NCBI RefSeq assembly: GCF_055900595.2
Contig: NZ_CM148325.1
Length of the DNA: 64,000 nucleotides
Strand: one strand, 5' to 3'
In this document: piece by piece, positions 2,962 through 45,358 of the stretch
Numbering within the stretch: position 1 is the stretch's first letter
How the letters are laid out: the number at the start of each line of letters is the position of its first letter
Made by a program: the position numbers and the translations under genes
Notes under the pieces: model-generated
The model's input: the letters and a program-made list of their open reading frames with translations, nothing else
Databases searched by the model: none
Told to the model about the DNA's origin: nothing

Positions 2962-3603
2962 TTGTATCAGGATAAAATTCTTGTCCGCCAGCTCGGTCTT
3001 CAGCCTTACGAGCCAATCTCCCAGGCTATGCATGAATTCACCGATACCCGCGATGAAAGTACTCTTGATGAAATCTGGCTGGTCGAGCACTATCCGGTAT
3101 TCACCCAAGGGCAGGCAGGAAAAGCGGAGCACATTTTAATGCCGGGCGATATTCCGGTGATCCAAAGCGATCGCGGTGGGCAGGTGACTTATCACGGGCC
3201 GGGGCAACAGGTGATGTATGTGTTGCTTAACCTGAAACGCCGTAAACTCGGTGTGCGTGAACTGGTGACCTTGCTCGAGCAAACAGTGGTGAATACCCTG
3301 GCTGAACTGGGTATAGAAGCACATCCTCGGGCTGACGCGCCTGGTGTCTATGTCGGGGAAAAGAAAATTTGCTCACTTGGCTTACGTATTCGGCGCGGTT
3401 GTTCATTCCACGGTCTGGCATTAAACGTCAATATGGATCTTTCGCCATTTTTACGTATTAATCCTTGTGGGTATGCCGGAATGGAAATGGCTAAAATATC
3501 ACAATGGAAACCCGAAGCGACAACTAATAATATTGCACCGCGTTTGCTAGAAAATATTTTAGTGCTACTAAACAATCCCGACTTCGAATATATTACCGCT
3601 TAA
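2962..3603 (+). CDS. lipB: Octanoyltransferase (lipoyl(octanoyl) transferase)
   Basis: 213-aa ORF beginning at TTG ([12 protein letters not shown]...), matches LipB, which is known to use a TTG start. Confidence 0.92.
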
Positions 3604-3862
3604 TTACATACATCAATGGCCCAATTTACACTGGGTCATTACTCATAATACCTGCTAATGCTTTACTTCTCCTTCGCGTTTGTATATTTTCTTTATCACT
3701 TGCAGAAATGCGATGCAATGCTTCGCTCCGTAACTCACCCCATTGATTAACTTATTGAAATAGTTGACTATGGTGAGCAAAAGCGTTCCATTCAAATTAG
3801 ATATAAGATTATTGTAATTTTTTTAAATATTATTTTTCCATGAATAAAATTGGAGTAAGTGC

Positions 3863-4816
3863 GTGGATAGTAATAATCAAATTGAACCCTGTTTAAGCAG
3901 AAAGTCGTCAGAAGGTAAACCACAAATATTTACAACCTTACGAAATATTGATCTTAACCTTCTGACTATTTTTGAAGCTGTGTATGTGCATAAAGGGATC
4001 GTTAATGCAGCGAAAGTGCTTAATCTGACACCCTCGGCAATCAGTCAGTCTATTCAGAAACTGCGCGTTATATTCCCTGACCCATTGTTTATTCGCAAAG
4101 GCCAGGGCGTCACTCCTACTGCATTTGCAATGCATTTGCATGAGTATATCAGTCAGGGCCTTGAATCCATTCTCGGCGCGCTGGATATCGAAGGAACCTA
4201 TGATAAGCAACGAACGATAACTATCGCGACCACCCCCTCGGTCGGAGCCCTGGTCCTTCCTGTCATCTATCGGGCGATTAAATCTCACTATCCGCAGCTT
4301 TTACTGCGCACCCCCCCCATCAGCGACGCGGAAAACCAACTCAGTCAGTTTCAAACCGATCTCATCATCGATAACATGTTTTGCACCAATCGTACGGTGC
4401 AACATCATGTTCTGTTCACCGACAATATGGTGTTAATTTGCCGCGAGGGAAATCCGCTACTCTCTTTAGAAGATGACAGAGAGACTATTGACAACGCTGC
4501 GCATATACTCCTGTTACCGGAAGGGCAAAATTTCAGCGGTCTGCGGCAGAGAGTTCAAGAGATGTTTCCGGACCGGCAAATCAGTTTCACCAGCTACAAC
4601 ATTTTGACAATCGCTGCACTGGTTGCCAACAGTGACATGTTAGCGATTATTCCCAGCCGTTTTTATAACCTGTTTAGCCGTTGCTGGCCGCTGGAAAAAC
4701 TGCCTTTTCCGTCCTTAAATGAGGAGCAAGTAGATTTCTCTATCCACTACAACAAATTCAGCCTGCGTGATCCCATCCTGCACGGGGTAATAGATGTTAT
4801 CCGTAATGCATTTTGA
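3863..4816 (+). CDS. ybeF: LysR-family transcriptional regulator YbeF
   Basis: 317-aa ORF with GTG start; N-terminal HTH (LTPSAISQSIQKLR); paralogous to YbdO later in the window. Confidence 0.85.
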   Translation: MDSNNQIEPCLSRKSSEGKPQIFTTLRNIDLNLLTIFEAVYVHKGIVNAAKVLNLTPSAISQSIQKLRVIFPDPLFIRKGQGVTPTAFAMHLHEYISQGLESILGALDIEGTYDKQRTITIATTPSVGALVLPVIYRAIKSHYPQLLLRTPPISDAENQLSQFQTDLIIDNMFCTNRTVQHHVLFTDNMVLICREGNPLLSLEDDRETIDNAAHILLLPEGQNFSGLRQRVQEMFPDRQISFTSYNILTIAALVANSDMLAIIPSRFYNLFSRCWPLEKLPFPSLNEEQVDFSIHYNKFSLRDPILHGVIDVIRNAF

Positions 4817-5024
4817 AAAAGTATTGTTACAGCCAGATCACAGCGAAGAACGAAAAAATGGCACAATCCAACAACAATTTTACATTTTCGCGACCGCTTT
4901 GGCTGCTTTCAGGTCCGTTTCAATGATATACTGCCAGTCGTTAATTCAAAAATAGTTGATAATTACAACAATCTATTGAATTGAAACGCTTTCCTTCGTA
5001 ATTCGCAACTGGAACACGCACGCT

Positions 5025-5990
5025 ATGAGTAAACCCATTGTGATGGAACGCGGTGTTAAATACCGCGATGCCGATAAGATGGCCCTTATCCCGGTTAAAA
5101 ACGTGGCAACAGAGCGCGAAGCCCTGCTGCGCAAGCCGGAATGGATGAAAATCAAGCTTCCAGCGGACTCTACACGTATCCAGGGCATCAAAGCCGCAAT
5201 GCGCAAAAATGGCCTGCATTCTGTCTGCGAGGAAGCCTCCTGCCCTAACCTGGCGGAATGCTTCAACCACGGCACAGCAACGTTTATGATCCTCGGCGCT
5301 ATTTGTACCCGCCGTTGTCCGTTCTGTGACGTTGCCCACGGTCGCCCGGTAGCTCCGGATGCCAATGAACCAGTGAAACTGGCGCAGACCATTGCCGATA
5401 TGGCGCTGCGTTATGTGGTTATCACCTCCGTTGACCGTGATGACCTGCGCGATGGCGGTGCCCAGCACTTTGCGGATTGCATTACTGCCATTCGGGAAAA
5501 AAGCCCGCAAATCAAAATTGAAACTCTGGTGCCGGATTTCCGCGGTCGTATGGATCGTGCTCTGGATATTCTGACCGCCACACCACCAGATGTGTTCAAC
5601 CATAACCTGGAAAACGTACCGCGTATTTACCGTCAGGTACGGCCTGGTGCAGATTACAACTGGTCGCTGAAGCTGCTGGAACGCTTTAAAGAAGCGCATC
5701 CGGAAATCCCGACCAAGTCTGGGCTGATGGTGGGTCTGGGTGAAACCAATGAAGAAATTATTGAGGTAATGCGCGACCTGCGCCGTCATGGTGTGACGAT
5801 GCTAACGCTGGGGCAATATTTGCAGCCAAGCCGCCATCACCTGCCGGTTCAACGTTACGTTAGCCCGGATGAGTTCGACGAAATGAAAGCCGAAGCGCTG
5901 GCGATGGGCTTTACCCATGCTGCATGCGGTCCGTTTGTCCGCTCGTCTTACCACGCCGATTTGCAGGCGAAAGGGATGGAAGTTAAGTAA
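5025..5990 (+). CDS. lipA: Lipoyl synthase (radical SAM)
   Basis: 321-aa ORF; CxxxCxxC radical-SAM motif (CTRRCPFC) and second Cys cluster ([12 protein letters not shown]). Confidence 0.96.
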
Positions 5991-21689: not shown

Positions 21690-22044
21690 TCCCATCTGCA
21701 CAAGCGACAACTCGCTTTGCCCAGAGGATGCACTCGCATCCTCTTTCCGCTCAAATATCAACCAGATTTATCATTTTGCTCTTAAGCACAGCATTCTAAT
21801 CTGAACTGGTTATTCATCTGCGGAACCCCATATGAGCGAAGCTCTCAGTATCACTGCGTTTTATATATTCATAGCAGCTATTATTGTTGCTGCAGTGCTA
21901 TACCTTGAACAACGCTGGTAGTACCTGGTTTTATTTATTTTCCAGATCAATCGCAAATTCAGATCGAATCAGCCTCGCAAATCATAGATTCATAATCAAT
22001 AATGTGCTGTTATGTATACATGCAAAAACAAGGAGAGAATGCTT

Positions 22045-25266: not shown

Positions 25267-26013
25267 ATGTTAAAAAAGATACTTTTACTGGCTCTGCTTC
25301 CTACAATCGCCTTTGCAGAGGAACTTCCTGCTCCGGTAAAAGCGATTGAAAAACAGGGCATTAAGATCATCAAAACGTTCGATGCCCCCGGCGGAATGAA
25401 AGGTTATCTCGGCAAGTATCAGGATATGGGCGTCACCATCTACCTGACTCCAGATGGTAAGCACGCTATCTCTGGTTACATGTACAACGAGAAAGGTGAA
25501 AACCTGAGTAACATGCTTATCGAAAAAGAAATTTATGCGCCAGCCGGACGCGAAATGTGGCAACGGATGGAACAATCGCACTGGCTCCTCGACGGTAAAA
25601 AAGACGCGCCAGTCATAGTCTACGTTTTCGCCGATCCGTTCTGCCCATATTGTAAACAGTTCTGGCAGCAGGCGCGCCCGTGGGTTGATTCTGGCAAAGT
25701 ACAGTTGAGAACATTGTTGGTTGGGGTTATCAAACCAGAAAGTCCGGCGACAGCCGCGGCAATTCTGGCCTCTAAAGATCCCGCAAAAACCTGGCAAGAA
25801 TATGAAGCCTCTGGCGGCAAACTTAAGCTAAATGTGCCTACAAACGTAAGTGCAGAGCAAATGAAAGTGTTAAGCGACAACGAGAAACTCATGGACGATC
25901 TGGGGGCAAATGTCACACCGGCTATCTATTACATGAGTAAGGAAAATACGCTGCAACAGGCCGTGGGGTTGCCCGATCAGAAAACGCTTAATATCATCAT
26001 GAGAAATAAATAG
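25267..26013 (+). CDS. dsbG: Periplasmic thiol:disulfide interchange protein DsbG
   Basis: ORF trimmed to [17 protein letters not shown]... (248 aa); thioredoxin CPYC active site. Confidence 0.93.
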
Positions 26014-26220
26014 AAGGTAATTCATGGGTGGTTGAAATACATTCTTGCTTTTCAACCATTCTAAAAACGCATGAATTGCTTCTTCCCCTCCTGACAACTG
26101 TGTTACTTTAGAAAAACTTAATCCAGAGTTAAGTAATAAAACATAACAAATATAAATAAAACAGTAGAATCATTGATTACAAGAATGATTTATGGAAAAG
26201 ATAATATAACGGAGTATGTT

Positions 26221-27123
26221 ATGGCTAATCTTTATGATTTAAAAAAATTCGACCTCAATTTACTGGTCATATTTGAGTGCATTTATCAACACCTCAGCAT
26301 TAGCAAAGCAGCAGAATCATTATATATAACGCCATCTGCCGTTAGTCAGTCGTTACAACGTTTACGCGCGCAATTTAATGACCCGTTATTCATCCGCTCA
26401 GGGAAAGGTATCGCGCCGACTACAACAGGGTTAAATCTGCATCACCATCTTGAGAAAAATCTCCGAGGCCTTGAACAAACGATCAATATCGTTAATAAGT
26501 CTGAGCTGAAGAAAAATTTTATTATCTACGGTCCTCAGCTTATTTCTTGTAGTAATAACAACATGCTAATCCGCTGTCTAAGACAAGATACTTCAATCGA
26601 TATAGAATGCCATGACATACTGCTTTCAGCTGAAAACGCTGAAGAATTGTTAGTTCAACGCAAAGCTGACCTGGCAATTACACTGCAACCAGTAATTAGC
26701 CGCTCTGTCATCTGCATGCCGGTACATACTATTCGCAATTCTCTTATATGTAGCAACAAACATCCTCGTATTACCGATACCAGTAACTATGAACAAATTA
26801 TCGCCGAAGAATTCACCTTGTTGATATCTAAATCAGCAGGGATTGACGAAATTCAAATGGACATAGATGAACGTTTTATGAACCGTAAAGTTTCATTTCG
26901 CAGTTCTTCTTTGTTGACGATAATTAATAGTATTTCTGTTACTGACTTATTGGGCATTGTGCCCACCGAACTGTACGATTTACATCGTGATTTTTTGAAG
27001 TTACAAGAGATAAAACTGGAACGACCACTTCCTACGGTTAAACTTTATATTTCCTATAACAAGGCTTCGTTGAACAACCTTGTCTTCTCACGATTCATAG
27101 ATCGTTTAAATGATAGCTTCTGA
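26221..27123 (+). CDS. ybdO: LysR-family transcriptional regulator YbdO
   Basis: Start taken at MANLYDLKKFDLNLL... (300 aa, GGAG RBS); N-terminal HTH; strongly AT-rich coding sequence. Confidence 0.85.
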   Translation: MANLYDLKKFDLNLLVIFECIYQHLSISKAAESLYITPSAVSQSLQRLRAQFNDPLFIRSGKGIAPTTTGLNLHHHLEKNLRGLEQTINIVNKSELKKNFIIYGPQLISCSNNNMLIRCLRQDTSIDIECHDILLSAENAEELLVQRKADLAITLQPVISRSVICMPVHTIRNSLICSNKHPRITDTSNYEQIIAEEFTLLISKSAGIDEIQMDIDERFMNRKVSFRSSSLLTIINSISVTDLLGIVPTELYDLHRDFLKLQEIKLERPLPTVKLYISYNKASLNNLVFSRFIDRLNDSF

Positions 27124-27269
27124 TTTATTACCACGGATAAATGTTATATTACGCATCAATTGATTCATTGTGTGAATATAAAATAATGTGCTCTATCTTG
27201 CTTCGTTTACCCTATAATTAGCGGATTCATCTCACAAGTCACCCAGTAACGTTCAGAGAGCGTTTTCAG

Positions 27270-28490
27270 ATGTCTATTTATAAAATCCCTCTTCCGCTGA
27301 ATATTTTAGAAGCTGCACAGGAACGTATTACCTGGACACTTAACACATTGCCCCGTGTTTGCGTTTCTTTTTCGAGGGGTAAAGATTCCGGATTAATGCT
27401 GCATCTTACCGCCGAACTTGCCAGAAAATTGGGAAAAAAAATCTGCGTTTTGTTTATCGACTGGGAAGCACAGTTCTCTTGTACCATCGACTATGTACAG
27501 TCGTTACGCGAGTTGTATACCGACGTTATTGAAGAGTTTTACTGGGTAGCACTCCCACTCAAGACGCAAAATTCCCTTTCACAATACCAACCAGAATGGC
27601 AGTGCTGGGAATCTGATGTCGAATGGGTGCGTCAGCCCCCGCAAGAAGCGATAACCGATCCTGACTTTTTCTCCTTTTACCAGCCAGGCATGACCTTCGA
27701 ACAATTTGTACGTGAGTTTGCCGAATGGTTTTCACAAAAACGTCCGGCGGCGATGATGATCGGCATCCGTGCGGATGAGTCCTACAACCGTTTTGTCGCC
27801 ATCGCCAGTTTAAGTAAACAACGTTTTGCCGATGATAAGCCCTGGACCACAGCCGCACCAGGCGGTCACAGCTGGTACATTTACCCCATCTACGACTGGA
27901 AAGTAGCTGATATCTGGACCTGGTATGCTAATCATAAATCCCTATGTAACCCATTGTATAATATCATGTATCAGGCAGGCGTTCCCCTGCGTCATATGCG
28001 AATTTGCGAACCTTTTGGCCCGGAGCAACGGCAAGGATTATGGCTCTATCACGTTATCGAACCGGATCGCTGGGCTGCTATGTGCGCACGAGTTAGCGGG
28101 GTAAAAAGTGGCGGCATTTACGCCGGACATGACAATCATTTTTATGGTCATCGGAAAATCCTCAAACCAGAGCATTTAGACTGGCAAGAGTATGCATTAT
28201 TGCTGCTTGATAGCATGCCGGAGAAAACGGCTGAGCATTACCGCAACAAAATTGCCATTTACTTGCATTGGTATCAGAAAAAAGGTGTCGAGGTGCCACA
28301 GACCCAGCACGGGGACATTGGCGCGAAAGATATCCCCTCCTGGCGGCGAATTTGCAAGGTGTTACTGAATAACGATTACTGGTGTCGGGCATTATCATTT
28401 AGCCCAACCAAAGCGAAGAATTATCAGCGTTATAACGAACGGATAAAAGTAAAACGTCAGGAGTGGGGAATACTATGCAACAACAATTAA
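27270..28490 (+). CDS. ybdN: PAPS-reductase-like / PP-loop ATP-pyrophosphatase superfamily protein YbdN (function unknown)
   Basis: 406-aa ORF; N-terminal PP-loop-like motif VSFSRGKDSG; recognised as YbdN. Confidence 0.88.
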   Translation: MSIYKIPLPLNILEAAQERITWTLNTLPRVCVSFSRGKDSGLMLHLTAELARKLGKKICVLFIDWEAQFSCTIDYVQSLRELYTDVIEEFYWVALPLKTQNSLSQYQPEWQCWESDVEWVRQPPQEAITDPDFFSFYQPGMTFEQFVREFAEWFSQKRPAAMMIGIRADESYNRFVAIASLSKQRFADDKPWTTAAPGGHSWYIYPIYDWKVADIWTWYANHKSLCNPLYNIMYQAGVPLRHMRICEPFGPEQRQGLWLYHVIEPDRWAAMCARVSGVKSGGIYAGHDNHFYGHRKILKPEHLDWQEYALLLLDSMPEKTAEHYRNKIAIYLHWYQKKGVEVPQTQHGDIGAKDIPSWRRICKVLLNNDYWCRALSFSPTKAKNYQRYNERIKVKRQEWGILCNNN

Positions 28491-29092
28491 CGCAGGATTT
28501 AACCCAATTTCTCGCCAGCTTGCCGGAAGACGATCGCATCAAAGCGATTAACGAAATCCGCCTGGCGATCCATCAGGTTAGCCCCTTTCGTGAAGAGCCA
28601 GTAGATTGTGTTCTGTGGGTTAAAAACAGCCAACTTATGCCAAATGATTACAACCCAAACAATGTGGCACCGCCCGAGAAAAAACTGTTACAAAAATCCA
28701 TTGAGATAGATGGTTTTACCCAACCTATTGTGGTCACGCACACAGATAAAAATGCTCTGGAAATCGTGGATGGCTTTCACCGTCATGAAATTGGTAAAGG
28801 CTCTAACACGTTAAAAATGCGATTAAAAGGATATTTACCGGTCACCTGTCTGGAAGGAACACGTAACGAACGCATCGCCGCGACTATTCGTCATAACCGC
28901 GCTCGTGGACGCCACCAAATTACAGCCATGTCAGAAATCGTTCGTGAACTCAGCCAGTTAGGATGGGACGACAATAAAATCGGCAAAGAGCTGGGTATGG
29001 ACAGCGACGAAGTGTTGCGCCTGAAACAAATTAACGGCCTGCAAGAGTTATTTGCTGACCGTCAATATTCCCGCGCCTGGACAGTAAAATAA
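28463..29092 (+). CDS. ybdM: ParB/sulfiredoxin-fold (ParB-like nuclease domain) protein YbdM (function unknown)
   Basis: 209-aa ORF from GTG 28463, overlapping ybdN by 28 nt (alternative ATG at 28475); DGFHRH motif resembling the GxHR signature of ParB/Srx/DndB-like proteins. Confidence 0.82.
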   Translation: MGNTMQQQLTQDLTQFLASLPEDDRIKAINEIRLAIHQVSPFREEPVDCVLWVKNSQLMPNDYNPNNVAPPEKKLLQKSIEIDGFTQPIVVTHTDKNALEIVDGFHRHEIGKGSNTLKMRLKGYLPVTCLEGTRNERIAATIRHNRARGRHQITAMSEIVRELSQLGWDDNKIGKELGMDSDEVLRLKQINGLQELFADRQYSRAWTVK

Positions 29093-30253
29093 TTACAGCT
29101 GGCGCAGGCGTTCAGCTGCCGCCAGCAACGTCGATTCCTTCTTGGCAAAACAGAGACGAATGAGCTTATGGGGGAAGGGATCGGCGCAAAATACCGACAG
29201 CGGGATCGCCGCCACGCCATGCTCCCGCGTCAGCCACTGGCAAAACTCAACGTCATCCAGCGAAGAAACCGCGCTGTAATCCACCAGCAAAAAGTAAGTG
29301 CCTTCGCACGGTAAAATCTCCAGCCGACTCTCACTTAAGGCGTTCACCAGAATATCGCGCTTCTGGCGATAAAAGTCCGGTAACGCAAGGTAGTGTTCAG
29401 GTTCTGCTCGCAGCATATCGGCAAGGGCCAGCTGCGCCGGGGTATTCACCGAAAAAGTCAGATACTGATGCACTTTGCGGATCTCGGCGCTGATGGGCGC
29501 AGGCGCAACGCAATAGCCCACTTTCCAGCCGGTCATATGATAGGTCTTGCCAAACGATGACACCGCCACCGCCCGCTCACGCAGTTGCGGATGCGCCAGC
29601 ACACTGGCATGGCCCTGCTGTGAAAAGTTGATATGCTCGTAAACTTCATCGCTAATGACAAAAATCTCGTGCCCGGCAATTGCCTGCCACAAAGCGGAAA
29701 AATCAGTCTGCTGCCAGACAGTAGCACTGGGGTTATGCGGGGTGTTAAGGATCACCAGTCGGGTGCGCTCGCTTAACAATGCGGCAAATTCCTGCCAGTC
29801 CACGCGAAAATGCGGTGGTTGCAGTGCAATACGTTTCACTATTCCACCCGCAAGCGTGATGGCGGGGGCGTAACTGTCATAGCTGGGATCAAAGCAAATC
29901 ACTTCATCGCCATTGCGCACCAATGCAGTAATCGCTGCGTACAGCGCTTCCGTCGCCCCTGCTGTTACGGTGATATCGCTGTCGGCATCTGGTTGATAGC
30001 CATACAGCCGTTCCGTTTTCTGAACAATCGCCTCGCGCAAGGCCTGCACGCCGGTCATGGGTGCGTATTGGTTTGCTCCGTGGGCAACGTGGTACGCCAG
30101 CCGTTCCTGCAAATAGCGCGGACCATCAAAATCAGGAAAGCCTTGCGACAGGTTAATCGCCTGGTGTTGCTGCGCCAGTGCGCTCATCTGGGTGAAAATA
30201 GTGGTGCCAAGTTGTGGAAGTTTGCTTTGTGGAATCAGAGGGTTATTTGTCAT
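29093..30253 (-). CDS. ybdL: Methionine aminotransferase (PLP-dependent)
   Basis: ORF trimmed to MTNNPLIPQSKLPQLG... (386 aa); PLP-lysine context SFGKTY. Confidence 0.92.
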   Translation of the reverse strand: MTNNPLIPQSKLPQLGTTIFTQMSALAQQHQAINLSQGFPDFDGPRYLQERLAYHVAHGANQYAPMTGVQALREAIVQKTERLYGYQPDADSDITVTAGATEALYAAITALVRNGDEVICFDPSYDSYAPAITLAGGIVKRIALQPPHFRVDWQEFAALLSERTRLVILNTPHNPSATVWQQTDFSALWQAIAGHEIFVISDEVYEHINFSQQGHASVLAHPQLRERAVAVSSFGKTYHMTGWKVGYCVAPAPISAEIRKVHQYLTFSVNTPAQLALADMLRAEPEHYLALPDFYRQKRDILVNALSESRLEILPCEGTYFLLVDYSAVSSLDDVEFCQWLTREHGVAAIPLSVFCADPFPHKLIRLCFAKKESTLLAAAERLRQL

Positions 30254-30361
30254 TTTTATTGTGCCTGACAAAGTTGCGTGTTGAAGCCACTATAACACGA
30301 TGCTAGTATTTGGCAATCAAGACGTTTAGATGTCTAAATAAAACAATAAGGACAACACAAC

Positions 30362-31450
30362 ATGCCTCACAATCCTATCCGCGTCGTCGTTGGCCCTGCT
30401 AACTACTTTTCTCATCCCGGCAGTCTCAATCACCTGCATGATTTTTTCACTGATGAACAACTTTCTCGCGCAGTGTGGATCTACGGTGAACGTGCACTTG
30501 CCGCGGCGCAAACCAAACTTCCATCGGCGTTTGAACTGCCAGGAGCAAAGCATATTTTGTTTCGCGGTCATTGCAGTGAAAGCAATGTGCAACAACTGGC
30601 GGCTGAGTCCGGTGACGATCGCAGCGTGGTGATTGGCGTCGGCGGCGGCGCACTGCTCGACACCGCGAAAGCCCTCGCCCGCCGTCTCGGTCTGCCGTTT
30701 GTTGCCGTTCCAACGATTGCCGCTACCTGCGCTGCCTGGACACCACTCTCTGTCTGGTACAACGATGCCGGACAGGCGCTACATTATGAGATTTTTGACG
30801 ACGCCAATTTTATGGTGCTGGTGGAACCGGAGATAATCCTCAATGCGCCGCAAGAATATCTGCTGGCAGGAATCGGTGACACGCTGGCGAAATGGTATGA
30901 AGCGGTGGTGCTGGCTCCTCAGCCAGAAACGCTGCCGCTAACCGTGCGGCTGGGAATCAATAATGCGCAGGTCATTCGCGACGCCTTGTTAAACAGTAGC
31001 GAACAGGCGCTTGCCGATCAGCAAAATCAGCAGTTAACGCAATCATTTTGCGATGTGGTCGATGCGATTATCGCCGGAGGCGGAATGGTCGGTGGTCTGG
31101 GCGATCGTTTTACGCGTGTGGCGGCGGCCCATGCCGTGCATAACGGTCTGACCGTTTTGCCGCAAACCGAGAAGTTTCTCCACGGCACCAAAGTCGCCTA
31201 CGGAATTCTGGTGCAAAGCGCCTTGCTGGGTCAGGATGATGTGCTGGCGCAATTAACCGGGGCGCATCAGCGTTTTCATCTGCCGACCACGCTGGCGGAG
31301 CTGGAAGTGGATATCAATAATCAGGCAGAGATCGACAAAGTGATTGCGCACACCTTGCGTCCGGCGGAATCCATTCATTACCTGCCGGTCACGCTGACAC
31401 CAGATACGTTGCGTGCAGCGTTCGAAAAAGTGGAATCGTTTAAAGTCTGA
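30362..31450 (+). CDS. ybdH: Hydroxycarboxylate dehydrogenase (iron-containing alcohol dehydrogenase family)
   Basis: 362-aa ORF MPHNPIRVVVGPANYFSHPGSL... matches YbdH; GGGxxxD NAD motif. Confidence 0.9.
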   Translation: MPHNPIRVVVGPANYFSHPGSLNHLHDFFTDEQLSRAVWIYGERALAAAQTKLPSAFELPGAKHILFRGHCSESNVQQLAAESGDDRSVVIGVGGGALLDTAKALARRLGLPFVAVPTIAATCAAWTPLSVWYNDAGQALHYEIFDDANFMVLVEPEIILNAPQEYLLAGIGDTLAKWYEAVVLAPQPETLPLTVRLGINNAQVIRDALLNSSEQALADQQNQQLTQSFCDVVDAIIAGGGMVGGLGDRFTRVAAAHAVHNGLTVLPQTEKFLHGTKVAYGILVQSALLGQDDVLAQLTGAHQRFHLPTTLAELEVDINNQAEIDKVIAHTLRPAESIHYLPVTLTPDTLRAAFEKVESFKV

Positions 31451-44228: not shown

Positions 44229-45358
44229 ACTAAGTGGTCTGCCATCATGGCATCCTGTTTTCTGGATGCCATGGCATGGCGCAACAGCACGCTACCACAA
44301 GCCACCATACCGCCGATCAACGCAGAAAGGATCACGATAATCGCCTTACCCGGCCCGTCTTTTTTCACTGGCAATGACGGGCTTAACTGATATTTAAACG
44401 GCGTAAAATTCACATCGTTGATATTTGCTTTTGTTAGCTGCTCAACAAGATACTGACGATTACGTAATTCACCGTTCAGTTCCGCAACGTCAGTAACCGC
44501 TTTTTCAATTTCCAGTTTGCGTTCAATACCGTCTGCGCCGAGAGAAATAGAGAAATCGGGGTCATCTTTAACGGCCTGACCATTACTGTAAACGGGCTTT
44601 TTAATTCCTGCCGCGTTGGCAATGTCGAGTGAATAATTGAGGCGCTGAATGTTTGCATCAAGTTGATTTTTCGTTTTAATGCGATCCTGAGCCAGTTTTT
44701 CTTTTTCAAACTGGGTTTTGATCTCCAGTTTATTACGGACGTTTTCTATCGACTCTTTCACCACCAATGCAGAGATATAATCGATATACCCGCTCAAAAC
44801 GGTCTGCGCCTCTTCACTGGTTGGCGCGGTAAAACTTAGCGTCCAGGAGGCATACAGTGACGGTTCATCTTTTTTCTTACTGGCATTGTCATCAACCGCT
44901 TTCATTTTTTCGCTCAATGCGACGATAGCGCGATGCAAATCCAGTTCGTCGATTTTCGCCTCTTTTAATTGGTCCATCACATAAGGTGATGAGCGCAGGT
45001 ACTCTTCCAGTAAGCTAACAGACTGAAACTTCTTGATAAACAGGTTAAATGCTTCTGTACGATCAATTTTGATATCCAGATCCAGCACACGAAGCTTAGT
45101 GAATGTTTTCTCAAGCGCCTGCCACTGAACAGGTTCTGGAGGCGTGACAACCGCCGCGCTGGTCCATTTTTGCGGCAGGATGAAAGAGATCAGTAAACCT
45201 GCGCAGACAAACGCAAAAACGACCGCCATGACCGTTTTTTTGGCCCGCCATAAAACTTCAATTAGATTAAGTAAATCAATTTCATTATTACTGGGCGACG
45301 CCAGAGGATACTCGGGAAAATGAGCGTCACTTCCCTGTTTAATATTCAGTGATGACAT
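44225..45358 (-). CDS. fepE: Polysaccharide co-polymerase (Wzz-family O-antigen chain-length regulator) FepE
   Basis: 377-aa ORF with N- and C-terminal TM segments; 3' end overlaps the fepC 3' end by 4 nt (convergent). Confidence 0.92.
   Translation of the reverse strand: MSSLNIKQGSDAHFPEYPLASPSNNEIDLLNLIEVLWRAKKTVMAVVFAFVCAGLLISFILPQKWTSAAVVTPPEPVQWQALEKTFTKLRVLDLDIKIDRTEAFNLFIKKFQSVSLLEEYLRSSPYVMDQLKEAKIDELDLHRAIVALSEKMKAVDDNASKKKDEPSLYASWTLSFTAPTSEEAQTVLSGYIDYISALVVKESIENVRNKLEIKTQFEKEKLAQDRIKTKNQLDANIQRLNYSLDIANAAGIKKPVYSNGQAVKDDPDFSISLGADGIERKLEIEKAVTDVAELNGELRNRQYLVEQLTKANINDVNFTPFKYQLSPSLPVKKDGPGKAIIVILSALIGGMVACGSVLLRHAMASRKQDAMMADHLV

Follow-up and report, generated by a model that had tools for sequence, protein, structure and literature searches.

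The window, that is, the whole stretch of 64,000 nucleotides that was analysed (NCBI RefSeq assembly GCF_055900595.2, contig NZ_CM148325.1), belongs to an Escherichia coli chromosome, and its ybeF locus is 99.9% identical to that of strain 2013C-4282. The gene order dacA, ybeD, lipB, ybeF, lipA, tatE is followed, about 22 kb beyond ybeF and past the citrate-lyase genes, by ahpC, dsbG, ybdO and ybdNM (K-12 annotation), with ybeF and ybdO lying on the same strand. The insertion of ybeF between lipB and lipA has been described as restricted to enteric bacteria (PMC4398509). The features considered in this work are as follows:

2962..3603, plus strand: lipB, upstream neighbour of ybeF (open reading frame, RefSeq annotation)
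3604..3862, no strand: lipB-ybeF spacer, 259 bp, 32.8% GC
3662..3688, plus strand: probable sigma-70 promoter of ybeF, TTTACT-15-TATATT (hexamers conserved in six genera; PMC3946193)
3832..3850, no strand: AT-rich dyad ATTTT-N9-AAAAT, 13-31 nt upstream of the ybeF start
3863..4816, plus strand: ybeF, LysR-type regulator of the YbeF family (open reading frame with GTG start, 317 aa; RefSeq-annotated alike in the 99.9% identical genome)
3947..4117, plus strand: coding region of the YbeF winged helix-turn-helix stretch (exact peptide match)
4817..5024, no strand: ybeF-lipA spacer, 208 bp, 38.5% GC
5025..5990, plus strand: lipA, downstream neighbour of ybeF (open reading frame, RefSeq annotation)
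26117..26133, plus strand: predicted CitR operator CTTAATCCAGAGTTAAG (CTTAA-N7-TTAAG), an exact match to the phylogenetic-footprinting box (PMC9068703, Fig. S2)
26221..27123, plus strand: ybdO, also named citR, LysR-type repressor CitR (300 aa; CitR family profile; K-12 b0603, 300 aa)
26248..26418, plus strand: coding region of the CitR winged helix-turn-helix stretch (exact peptide match)
27270..29092, plus strand: ybdN-ybdM operon (open reading frames, K-12 annotation; ybdN 27270-28490, ybdM 28463-29092)

Regarding the gene calls, the start of ybdO should be set at the ATG at 26221 rather than at the TTG at 26173 given by the mechanical open reading frame call, since the former yields 300 aa as in K-12 and agrees with the CitR family profile (NF047710), which aligns from residue 17 of the longer, TTG-started frame. 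YbeF carries a 28-residue extension before its helix-turn-helix (coding positions 3863-3946), which is probably real, because the GTG start and an upstream GGAG are unvarying across six genera. Between the two loci, positions 21751-22026 of the window hold 276 bp in place of the approximately 1.6 kb that contains ybdR and yldA in K-12, and the strain appears to be devoid of ybdR.

The sequence-only reading had described AT-rich spacers of about 260 and 210 bp on either side of ybeF, and the measured lengths and GC contents (259 bp at 32.8% and 208 bp at 38.5%, against 51.5% for the whole window) agree with this description. Alignment of six genera revealed two conserved blocks in the lipB-ybeF spacer, the first at 3660-3692 (GCTTTAC...T-A-T-A-T-T-T-T-C) and the second covering the 40 nt ahead of the unvarying GGAG and GTG, and the promoter hexamers lie in the best-conserved blocks. 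A constitutive, H-NS-marked ybeF promoter with the structure TTTACA-15-TATATT has been previously reported by genomic SELEX (PMC3946193), from which the window differs in its -35 hexamer (TTTACT vs the TTTACA published for K-12). At both loci, generic scans for promoters and terminators returned nothing above shuffled expectation, with the 15-nt spacer of the ybeF promoter lying outside what the scan allows. According to the literature, the ybeF-lipA spacer holds the lipA promoter, listed as ATGGCA-17-TACATT (PMC3946193).

At the place of the AT-rich dyad at 3832-3850, most genera present TTCAT-N7-ATGAA (loci L019-L023, at about 2467-2487), and in Citrobacter koseri both arms are changed together (TTTAT/ATAAA); the position, 13-32 nt ahead of the start codon, is conserved. 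For the dyad, binding of a protein or formation of a weak hairpin in the 5' leader can be envisaged, and it is unlikely to be a YbeF operator, because its arms change while the YbeF binding domain does not. An inverted repeat was further observed right after the lipB stop (3615-3640), reading GGCCCA...TGGGTC in E. coli, with arms that vary yet stay complementary in other genera (e.g., GTGGCT...AGCCAC in Enterobacter hormaechei); the repeat lacks a T-run, and the terminator scan did not report it.

Within the species, the locus is present in 5,424 complete E. coli genomes, and in about 1,094 of these (~20%) ybeF has become a pseudogene, when counted as less than 80% coverage of window positions 3600-5100. 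The pseudogenes share a deletion of ~392 bp, at about 4387-4778, which removes most of the effector domain, and some of them present a second loss at 4038-4232. The deleted copies are labelled frameshifted and incomplete by PGAP (loci L016, L017, L024, and L025), and in one genome (L018) ybeF has been lost together with most of lipA. The deletion is present in the phylogroup B2 strains ST131 O25b:H4 and LF82, in which citR is intact. The window copy of YbeF shares 97.8% amino-acid identity and the same lipB/lipA position with K-12 YbeF (b0629).

At the second locus, the search for the CitR box in the window recovered one exact match (26117-26133), the only further match with one mismatch (44382-44398) corresponding to the chance rate. 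The exact match contains the T-N11-A of LysR-type sites and is preserved in a promoter that otherwise shares only 72-77% identity with its K-12 counterpart. Relative to the K-12 transcription start determined by Higashi et al. (PMC4720273), the K-12 box occupies positions +3 to +19. On these sequence grounds the predicted box looks genuine, and its position fits autorepression by CitR. CitR binds its own promoter region in K-12 by ChIP-exo (PMC9068703; PMC8464067 supplement), represses ybdNM and affects citrate use (PMC9068703); repression of ybdO by H-NS has also been reported (PMC4720273; PMC9141747). The coordinates of the ybdO ChIP-exo site appear to follow an older K-12 numbering, since the site would otherwise fall inside the gene. 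Presumably, a shift of ~778 bp separates the K-12 numberings, and with it the site would overlap both the box and the transcription start.

The window CitR shares with K-12 CitR/YbdO (b0603) the upstream dsbG, the downstream ybdNM, the same CTTAA-N7-TTAAG box and residues 1-113, which are identical; nevertheless, the gene belongs to another allele class (79.5% nucleotide and 89% amino-acid identity), with all 33 substitutions falling past residue 113, in the effector domain. In this regard, E. coli strains differ extremely in citR and its promoter (window 25300-30800, with the trough at 26011-27310): 1,744 genomes carry a sequence at least 95% identical to the window allele, whereas 3,542, including K-12, W, and O157:H7, match it at only about 79%. 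The divergent block spans the 3' half of dsbG through ybdL, and synonymous sites of citR are saturated against K-12 (pS 0.71, compared with 0.04 for lipA). High diversity of the H-NS-bound ybdO has been already published (Higashi et al., 2016; PMC4720273).

The two N-terminal peptides quoted in the sequence-only reading as strikingly similar were found exactly in the window, at 3947-4117 and 26248-26418, and 34 of their 57 residues are identical (59.6%). As background we used 171 pairs from 19 E. coli LysR-type regulators, comprising the two window proteins and 17 encoded at K-12 loci, of roughly 45 others in E. coli (LeuO, NhaR, Cbl, Nac, HdfR, IlvY, AaeR, YhaJ, TdcA, XapR, YfeR, OxyR, MetR, CysB, YidZ, LysR, and LrhA). 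In this set, binding-domain identity averaged 30.6% (sd 6.9), which leaves YbeF and CitR about 4 sd above the mean, as rank 1 of 171. Over the full length, identity was 30.0%, against a background of 18.7% (sd 3.7), in rank 2 of 171 behind Cbl-CysB, and BLASTP aligned the two proteins with 131 bits (E 2e-40). Among the 17 K-12 regulators sampled, the next-best BLASTP partners of YbeF and CitR were LeuO (97 and 76 bits, respectively) and YidZ. The paralogy proposed from sequence is accordingly borne out by BLASTP, by the NCBIfam scores given below and by the pair ranking, with a binding-domain likeness far above the generic LysR level, as had been claimed.

The likeness is unevenly distributed, since it sits mainly in the first ~90 residues (59.6% there, 23% in the rest). 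Helix 3 reads T-P-S-A-[I/V]-S-Q-S-[I/L]-Q-[K/R]-L-R in the two proteins, with 10 of 13 residues identical, three conservative, and every polar position identical, so the recognition helices had been rightly called near-identical. Judged from cluster representatives (116 for YbeF, 105 for CitR), the binding domain is nearly invariant inside each family; the two families agree at 33 of its 57 positions, among them 28-31, 33-35, and 37, and 19 of the 57 are fixed differences. The latter include V/S19, N/K20, and K/E23 in helix 2, as well as K/S51 and Q/K53 in the wing, of which K/E23, K/S51, and Q/K53 change charge.

From the near-identical recognition helices, overlapping operator specificity had been suggested. 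Under such a reading, both regulators would act on common or overlapping operators, each controlling targets of the other. Apart from helix 3 and the positions identical across both families, this reading is favoured by published expression data, in which deletion of either ybeF or citR lowers lrhA and raises the FlhDC regulon (PMC9068703), with lrhA changes of -3.5 and -4.3 in the two mutants (given as fold in the text and as log2 fold change in Table 1 of PMC9068703). The same change on deleting either gene could reflect shared targets; moreover, ybeF and ybdO are both H-NS-associated and both listed as McbR targets in published surveys. The base-contacting positions of BenM-DNA structures, which we take to be 29-31, 33, and 34, are identical in YbeF and CitR and constitute a lead, and the identity of the solvent-exposed recognition-helix residues in both families would be compatible with a shared half-site.

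Nevertheless, the published ChIP-exo site lists do not overlap: sites for YbdO comprise ybdO, ybgD, ygiL, and yjjP, whereas those for YbeF comprise moeB, yfiD, and yihQ, with signal-to-noise ratios of 1.1-4.3, near background (PMC8464067 supplement). The strongest YbeF site, yihQ, looks like a sticky site, because it was also recovered with the unrelated regulator YjhI. The CitR peaks at ybgD and ygiL correspond to fimbrial genes, and ybgD carries an H-NS mark (PMC3946193). Regarding the box itself, no CTTAA-N7-TTAAG with up to one mismatch was found near ybeF, where only the AT-rich dyad at 3832-3850 is present, and neither ybeF spacer contains the TTAA-N7-TTAA core in any of the six genera compared. 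Likewise, the K-12 lrhA locus presents box matches with two mismatches only, at the chance rate. Furthermore, the fixed differences in helix 2 and wing that change charge separate the two families, and many further families of the branch carry this same helix 3. Overlapping operator specificity is thus not supported by the data so far, nor is it refuted, and we consider it improbable. Because of the family-specific fixed differences in helix 2 and the wing, and of the lack of a CitR box near ybeF, YbeF and CitR probably recognise related AT-rich dyads instead of the same operators.

A narrower version, in which YbeF and CitR share a core half-site owing to the identical surface of their recognition helices and act partly redundantly, with CitR covering for the lost ybeF in B2 strains, would explain the common lrhA and FlhDC change on deleting either gene, and it seems to us slightly less probable still.

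At the other extreme, the resemblance could be merely at the generic LysR-family level, with nothing distinctive about the pair. It is true that the T-x-x-A-V-S-x-x-I/L-x-x-L motif and the A-A pair of helix 2 are family-wide; however, the first rank in the binding domain and the second over the full length, together with the fact that YbeF and CitR are each other's next-best NCBIfam family, make this explanation very unlikely, and a full-length similarity no higher than that of random LysR pairs does not describe what was found (30.0% vs 18.7%).

NCBIfam keeps separate equivalog models for the two proteins, and each is a member of its own family: YbeF scored 605.4 bits with NF008554 (YbeF family, cut-off 277) and CitR scored 455.1 bits with NF047710 (CitR family, cut-off 400). 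In the crossed comparison neither reached the cut-off of the other (CitR with NF008554, 163.7 bits; YbeF with NF047710, 179.8 bits). Outside its own family, YbeF was ranked with CitR (180 bits), BsrA (119), and LeuO (113), and CitR with YbeF (164) and LeuO (96). Both proteins pass the domain models HTH_1 (PF00126, cut-off 26.6; YbeF 54.1 and CitR 67.6 bits) and LysR_substrate (PF03466, cut-off 28; YbeF 62.0 and CitR 40.1 bits), and both fall below the LeuO family model (NF007063, cut-off 262; 112.7 and 96.2 bits, respectively), which makes them relatives of LeuO lying outside the LeuO family. The position of the window citR is also that of the CitR family, upstream of ybdNM and with a predicted autoregulatory box in its promoter.

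When YbeF was scored against 1.8 billion representative proteins, its matches beyond its own family formed a cloud of families at 27-33% identity, some of which score higher against YbeF than CitR representatives do. Among the 113 nearest full-length representatives, binding-domain identity to YbeF had a median of 47%, with 52-63% attained by several families other than YbeF and CitR. The same helix 3 and the pattern DLNLL...F-x-D-P-L-F-x-R-x-G-x-G are common to YidZ and to many families of the branch. Since other families reach such binding-domain identity, the shared N-terminal pattern is a signature of the whole LeuO/YidZ-like branch, with no special YbeF-CitR link, and the pair lies at the upper end of a continuum within that branch, not apart from it.

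Comparison with known systems is consistent with this placement. LeuO and YidZ have in common with YbeF and CitR the D-L-N-L-L start, the S/P-A-V-S recognition helix and the F-x-D-x-L-F wing pattern, with 46-51% binding-domain identity, but their full-length identity to the two proteins is only 22-26%. LeuO is an H-NS antagonist at AT-rich loci. Cbl and CysB, for which functional overlap is established, are likewise a paralogous LysR pair in one genome with above-average similarity; in contrast, they are more alike over the full length (40.8% vs 30.0% for YbeF/CitR) and less alike in the binding domain (47.5% vs 59.6%). The closest solved structures for YbeF and CitR are those of DntR (PDB 1UTB, 2UYE, and 5AE4) and PA0477 (2ESN), which are only distant relatives; most of the matches (E 1e-18 and 4e-15) cover the DNA-binding domain together with a large part of the effector domain.

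With respect to the age of the pair, the DNA coding for the two binding domains (171 nt aligned) shows 55% identity overall, which falls to 26% at third codon positions; the same codon is used at 9 of the 34 identical binding-domain residues, and the longest identical run has 8 nt. Because of this low nucleotide and third-position identity, the split of ybeF and citR is ancient, and gene conversion between their binding-domain DNA is excluded for this window. Each family also has its own distribution. YbeF orthologues occur across Enterobacteriaceae with 63-72% identity, and the order dacA-ybeD-lipB-ybeF-lipA-tatE is kept in five further genera, with ybeF between lipB and lipA in Salmonella, C. 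koseri, Kosakonia, E. hormaechei, and a Cedecea-type contig. CitR orthologues were found only in Escherichia, Citrobacter, and Salmonella, with 56-61% identity outside Escherichia. In a neighbour-joining tree (Kimura distance, 300 bootstrap replicates), the YbeF and the CitR clades each received 100% bootstrap and the group YbeF+CitR+LeuO+YidZ received 94%, whereas YbeF and CitR as exclusive sisters were weakly supported (61%), so that the branching order inside the LeuO-like group is unsettled.

The weakest explanation, that the N-terminal likeness reflects a duplication in the recent past or a gene conversion of the binding domain between loci 22 kb apart, could invoke the common strand, the single 22-kb stretch and the concentration of similarity in the first ~90 residues, but it is contradicted by the low identity of the 171 nt with runs of no more than 8 nt, by the separate distribution and synteny of each family across genera, and by the fact that concentration of similarity in the binding domain is a LysR-wide rule (means of 30.6% there and 15.5% in the rest), and we regard it as extremely improbable.

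The explanation that we favour, with a probability of about 0.8, is that ybeF and citR are ancient paralogues in one LysR branch, with look-alike, conserved DNA-binding domains and divergent effector domains and operators. By this account, LeuO and YidZ would be further E. coli members of the branch, and YbeF and CitR would represent separate, well-conserved orthologue families that differ in genomic location: the former lies between lipB and lipA throughout Enterobacteriaceae, the latter beside ybdNM in Escherichia, Citrobacter, and Salmonella. The binding domains would be alike through branch-wide conservation under strong purifying selection; neither recent duplication nor gene conversion nor any particular functional tie would account for the likeness. 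In their effector-binding domains, on the other hand, the two proteins would have diverged to about 23% identity, and because of this divergence the two regulators presumably sense different signals.

In brief, the YbeF/CitR likeness is real and quantitatively strong, but it is that of a published paralogue pair, since the YbeF/YbdO paralogy was already recorded by Rodionova et al. (PMC9068703). With the pair thus recorded and covered by curated family models, its recognition matters little beyond bookkeeping. What is added here is a quantified measure of how far the pair exceeds the LysR background, evidence against gene conversion, and evidence for the N-terminal likeness being a trait of the whole LeuO-like branch and no sign of shared targets. 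The operator question is modest in reach, concerning the annotation of the E. coli regulatory network; if shared operators were true, they would help to explain the identical lrhA/flagellar phenotype of the two deletion mutants and would bear on why B2 strains can lose ybeF.
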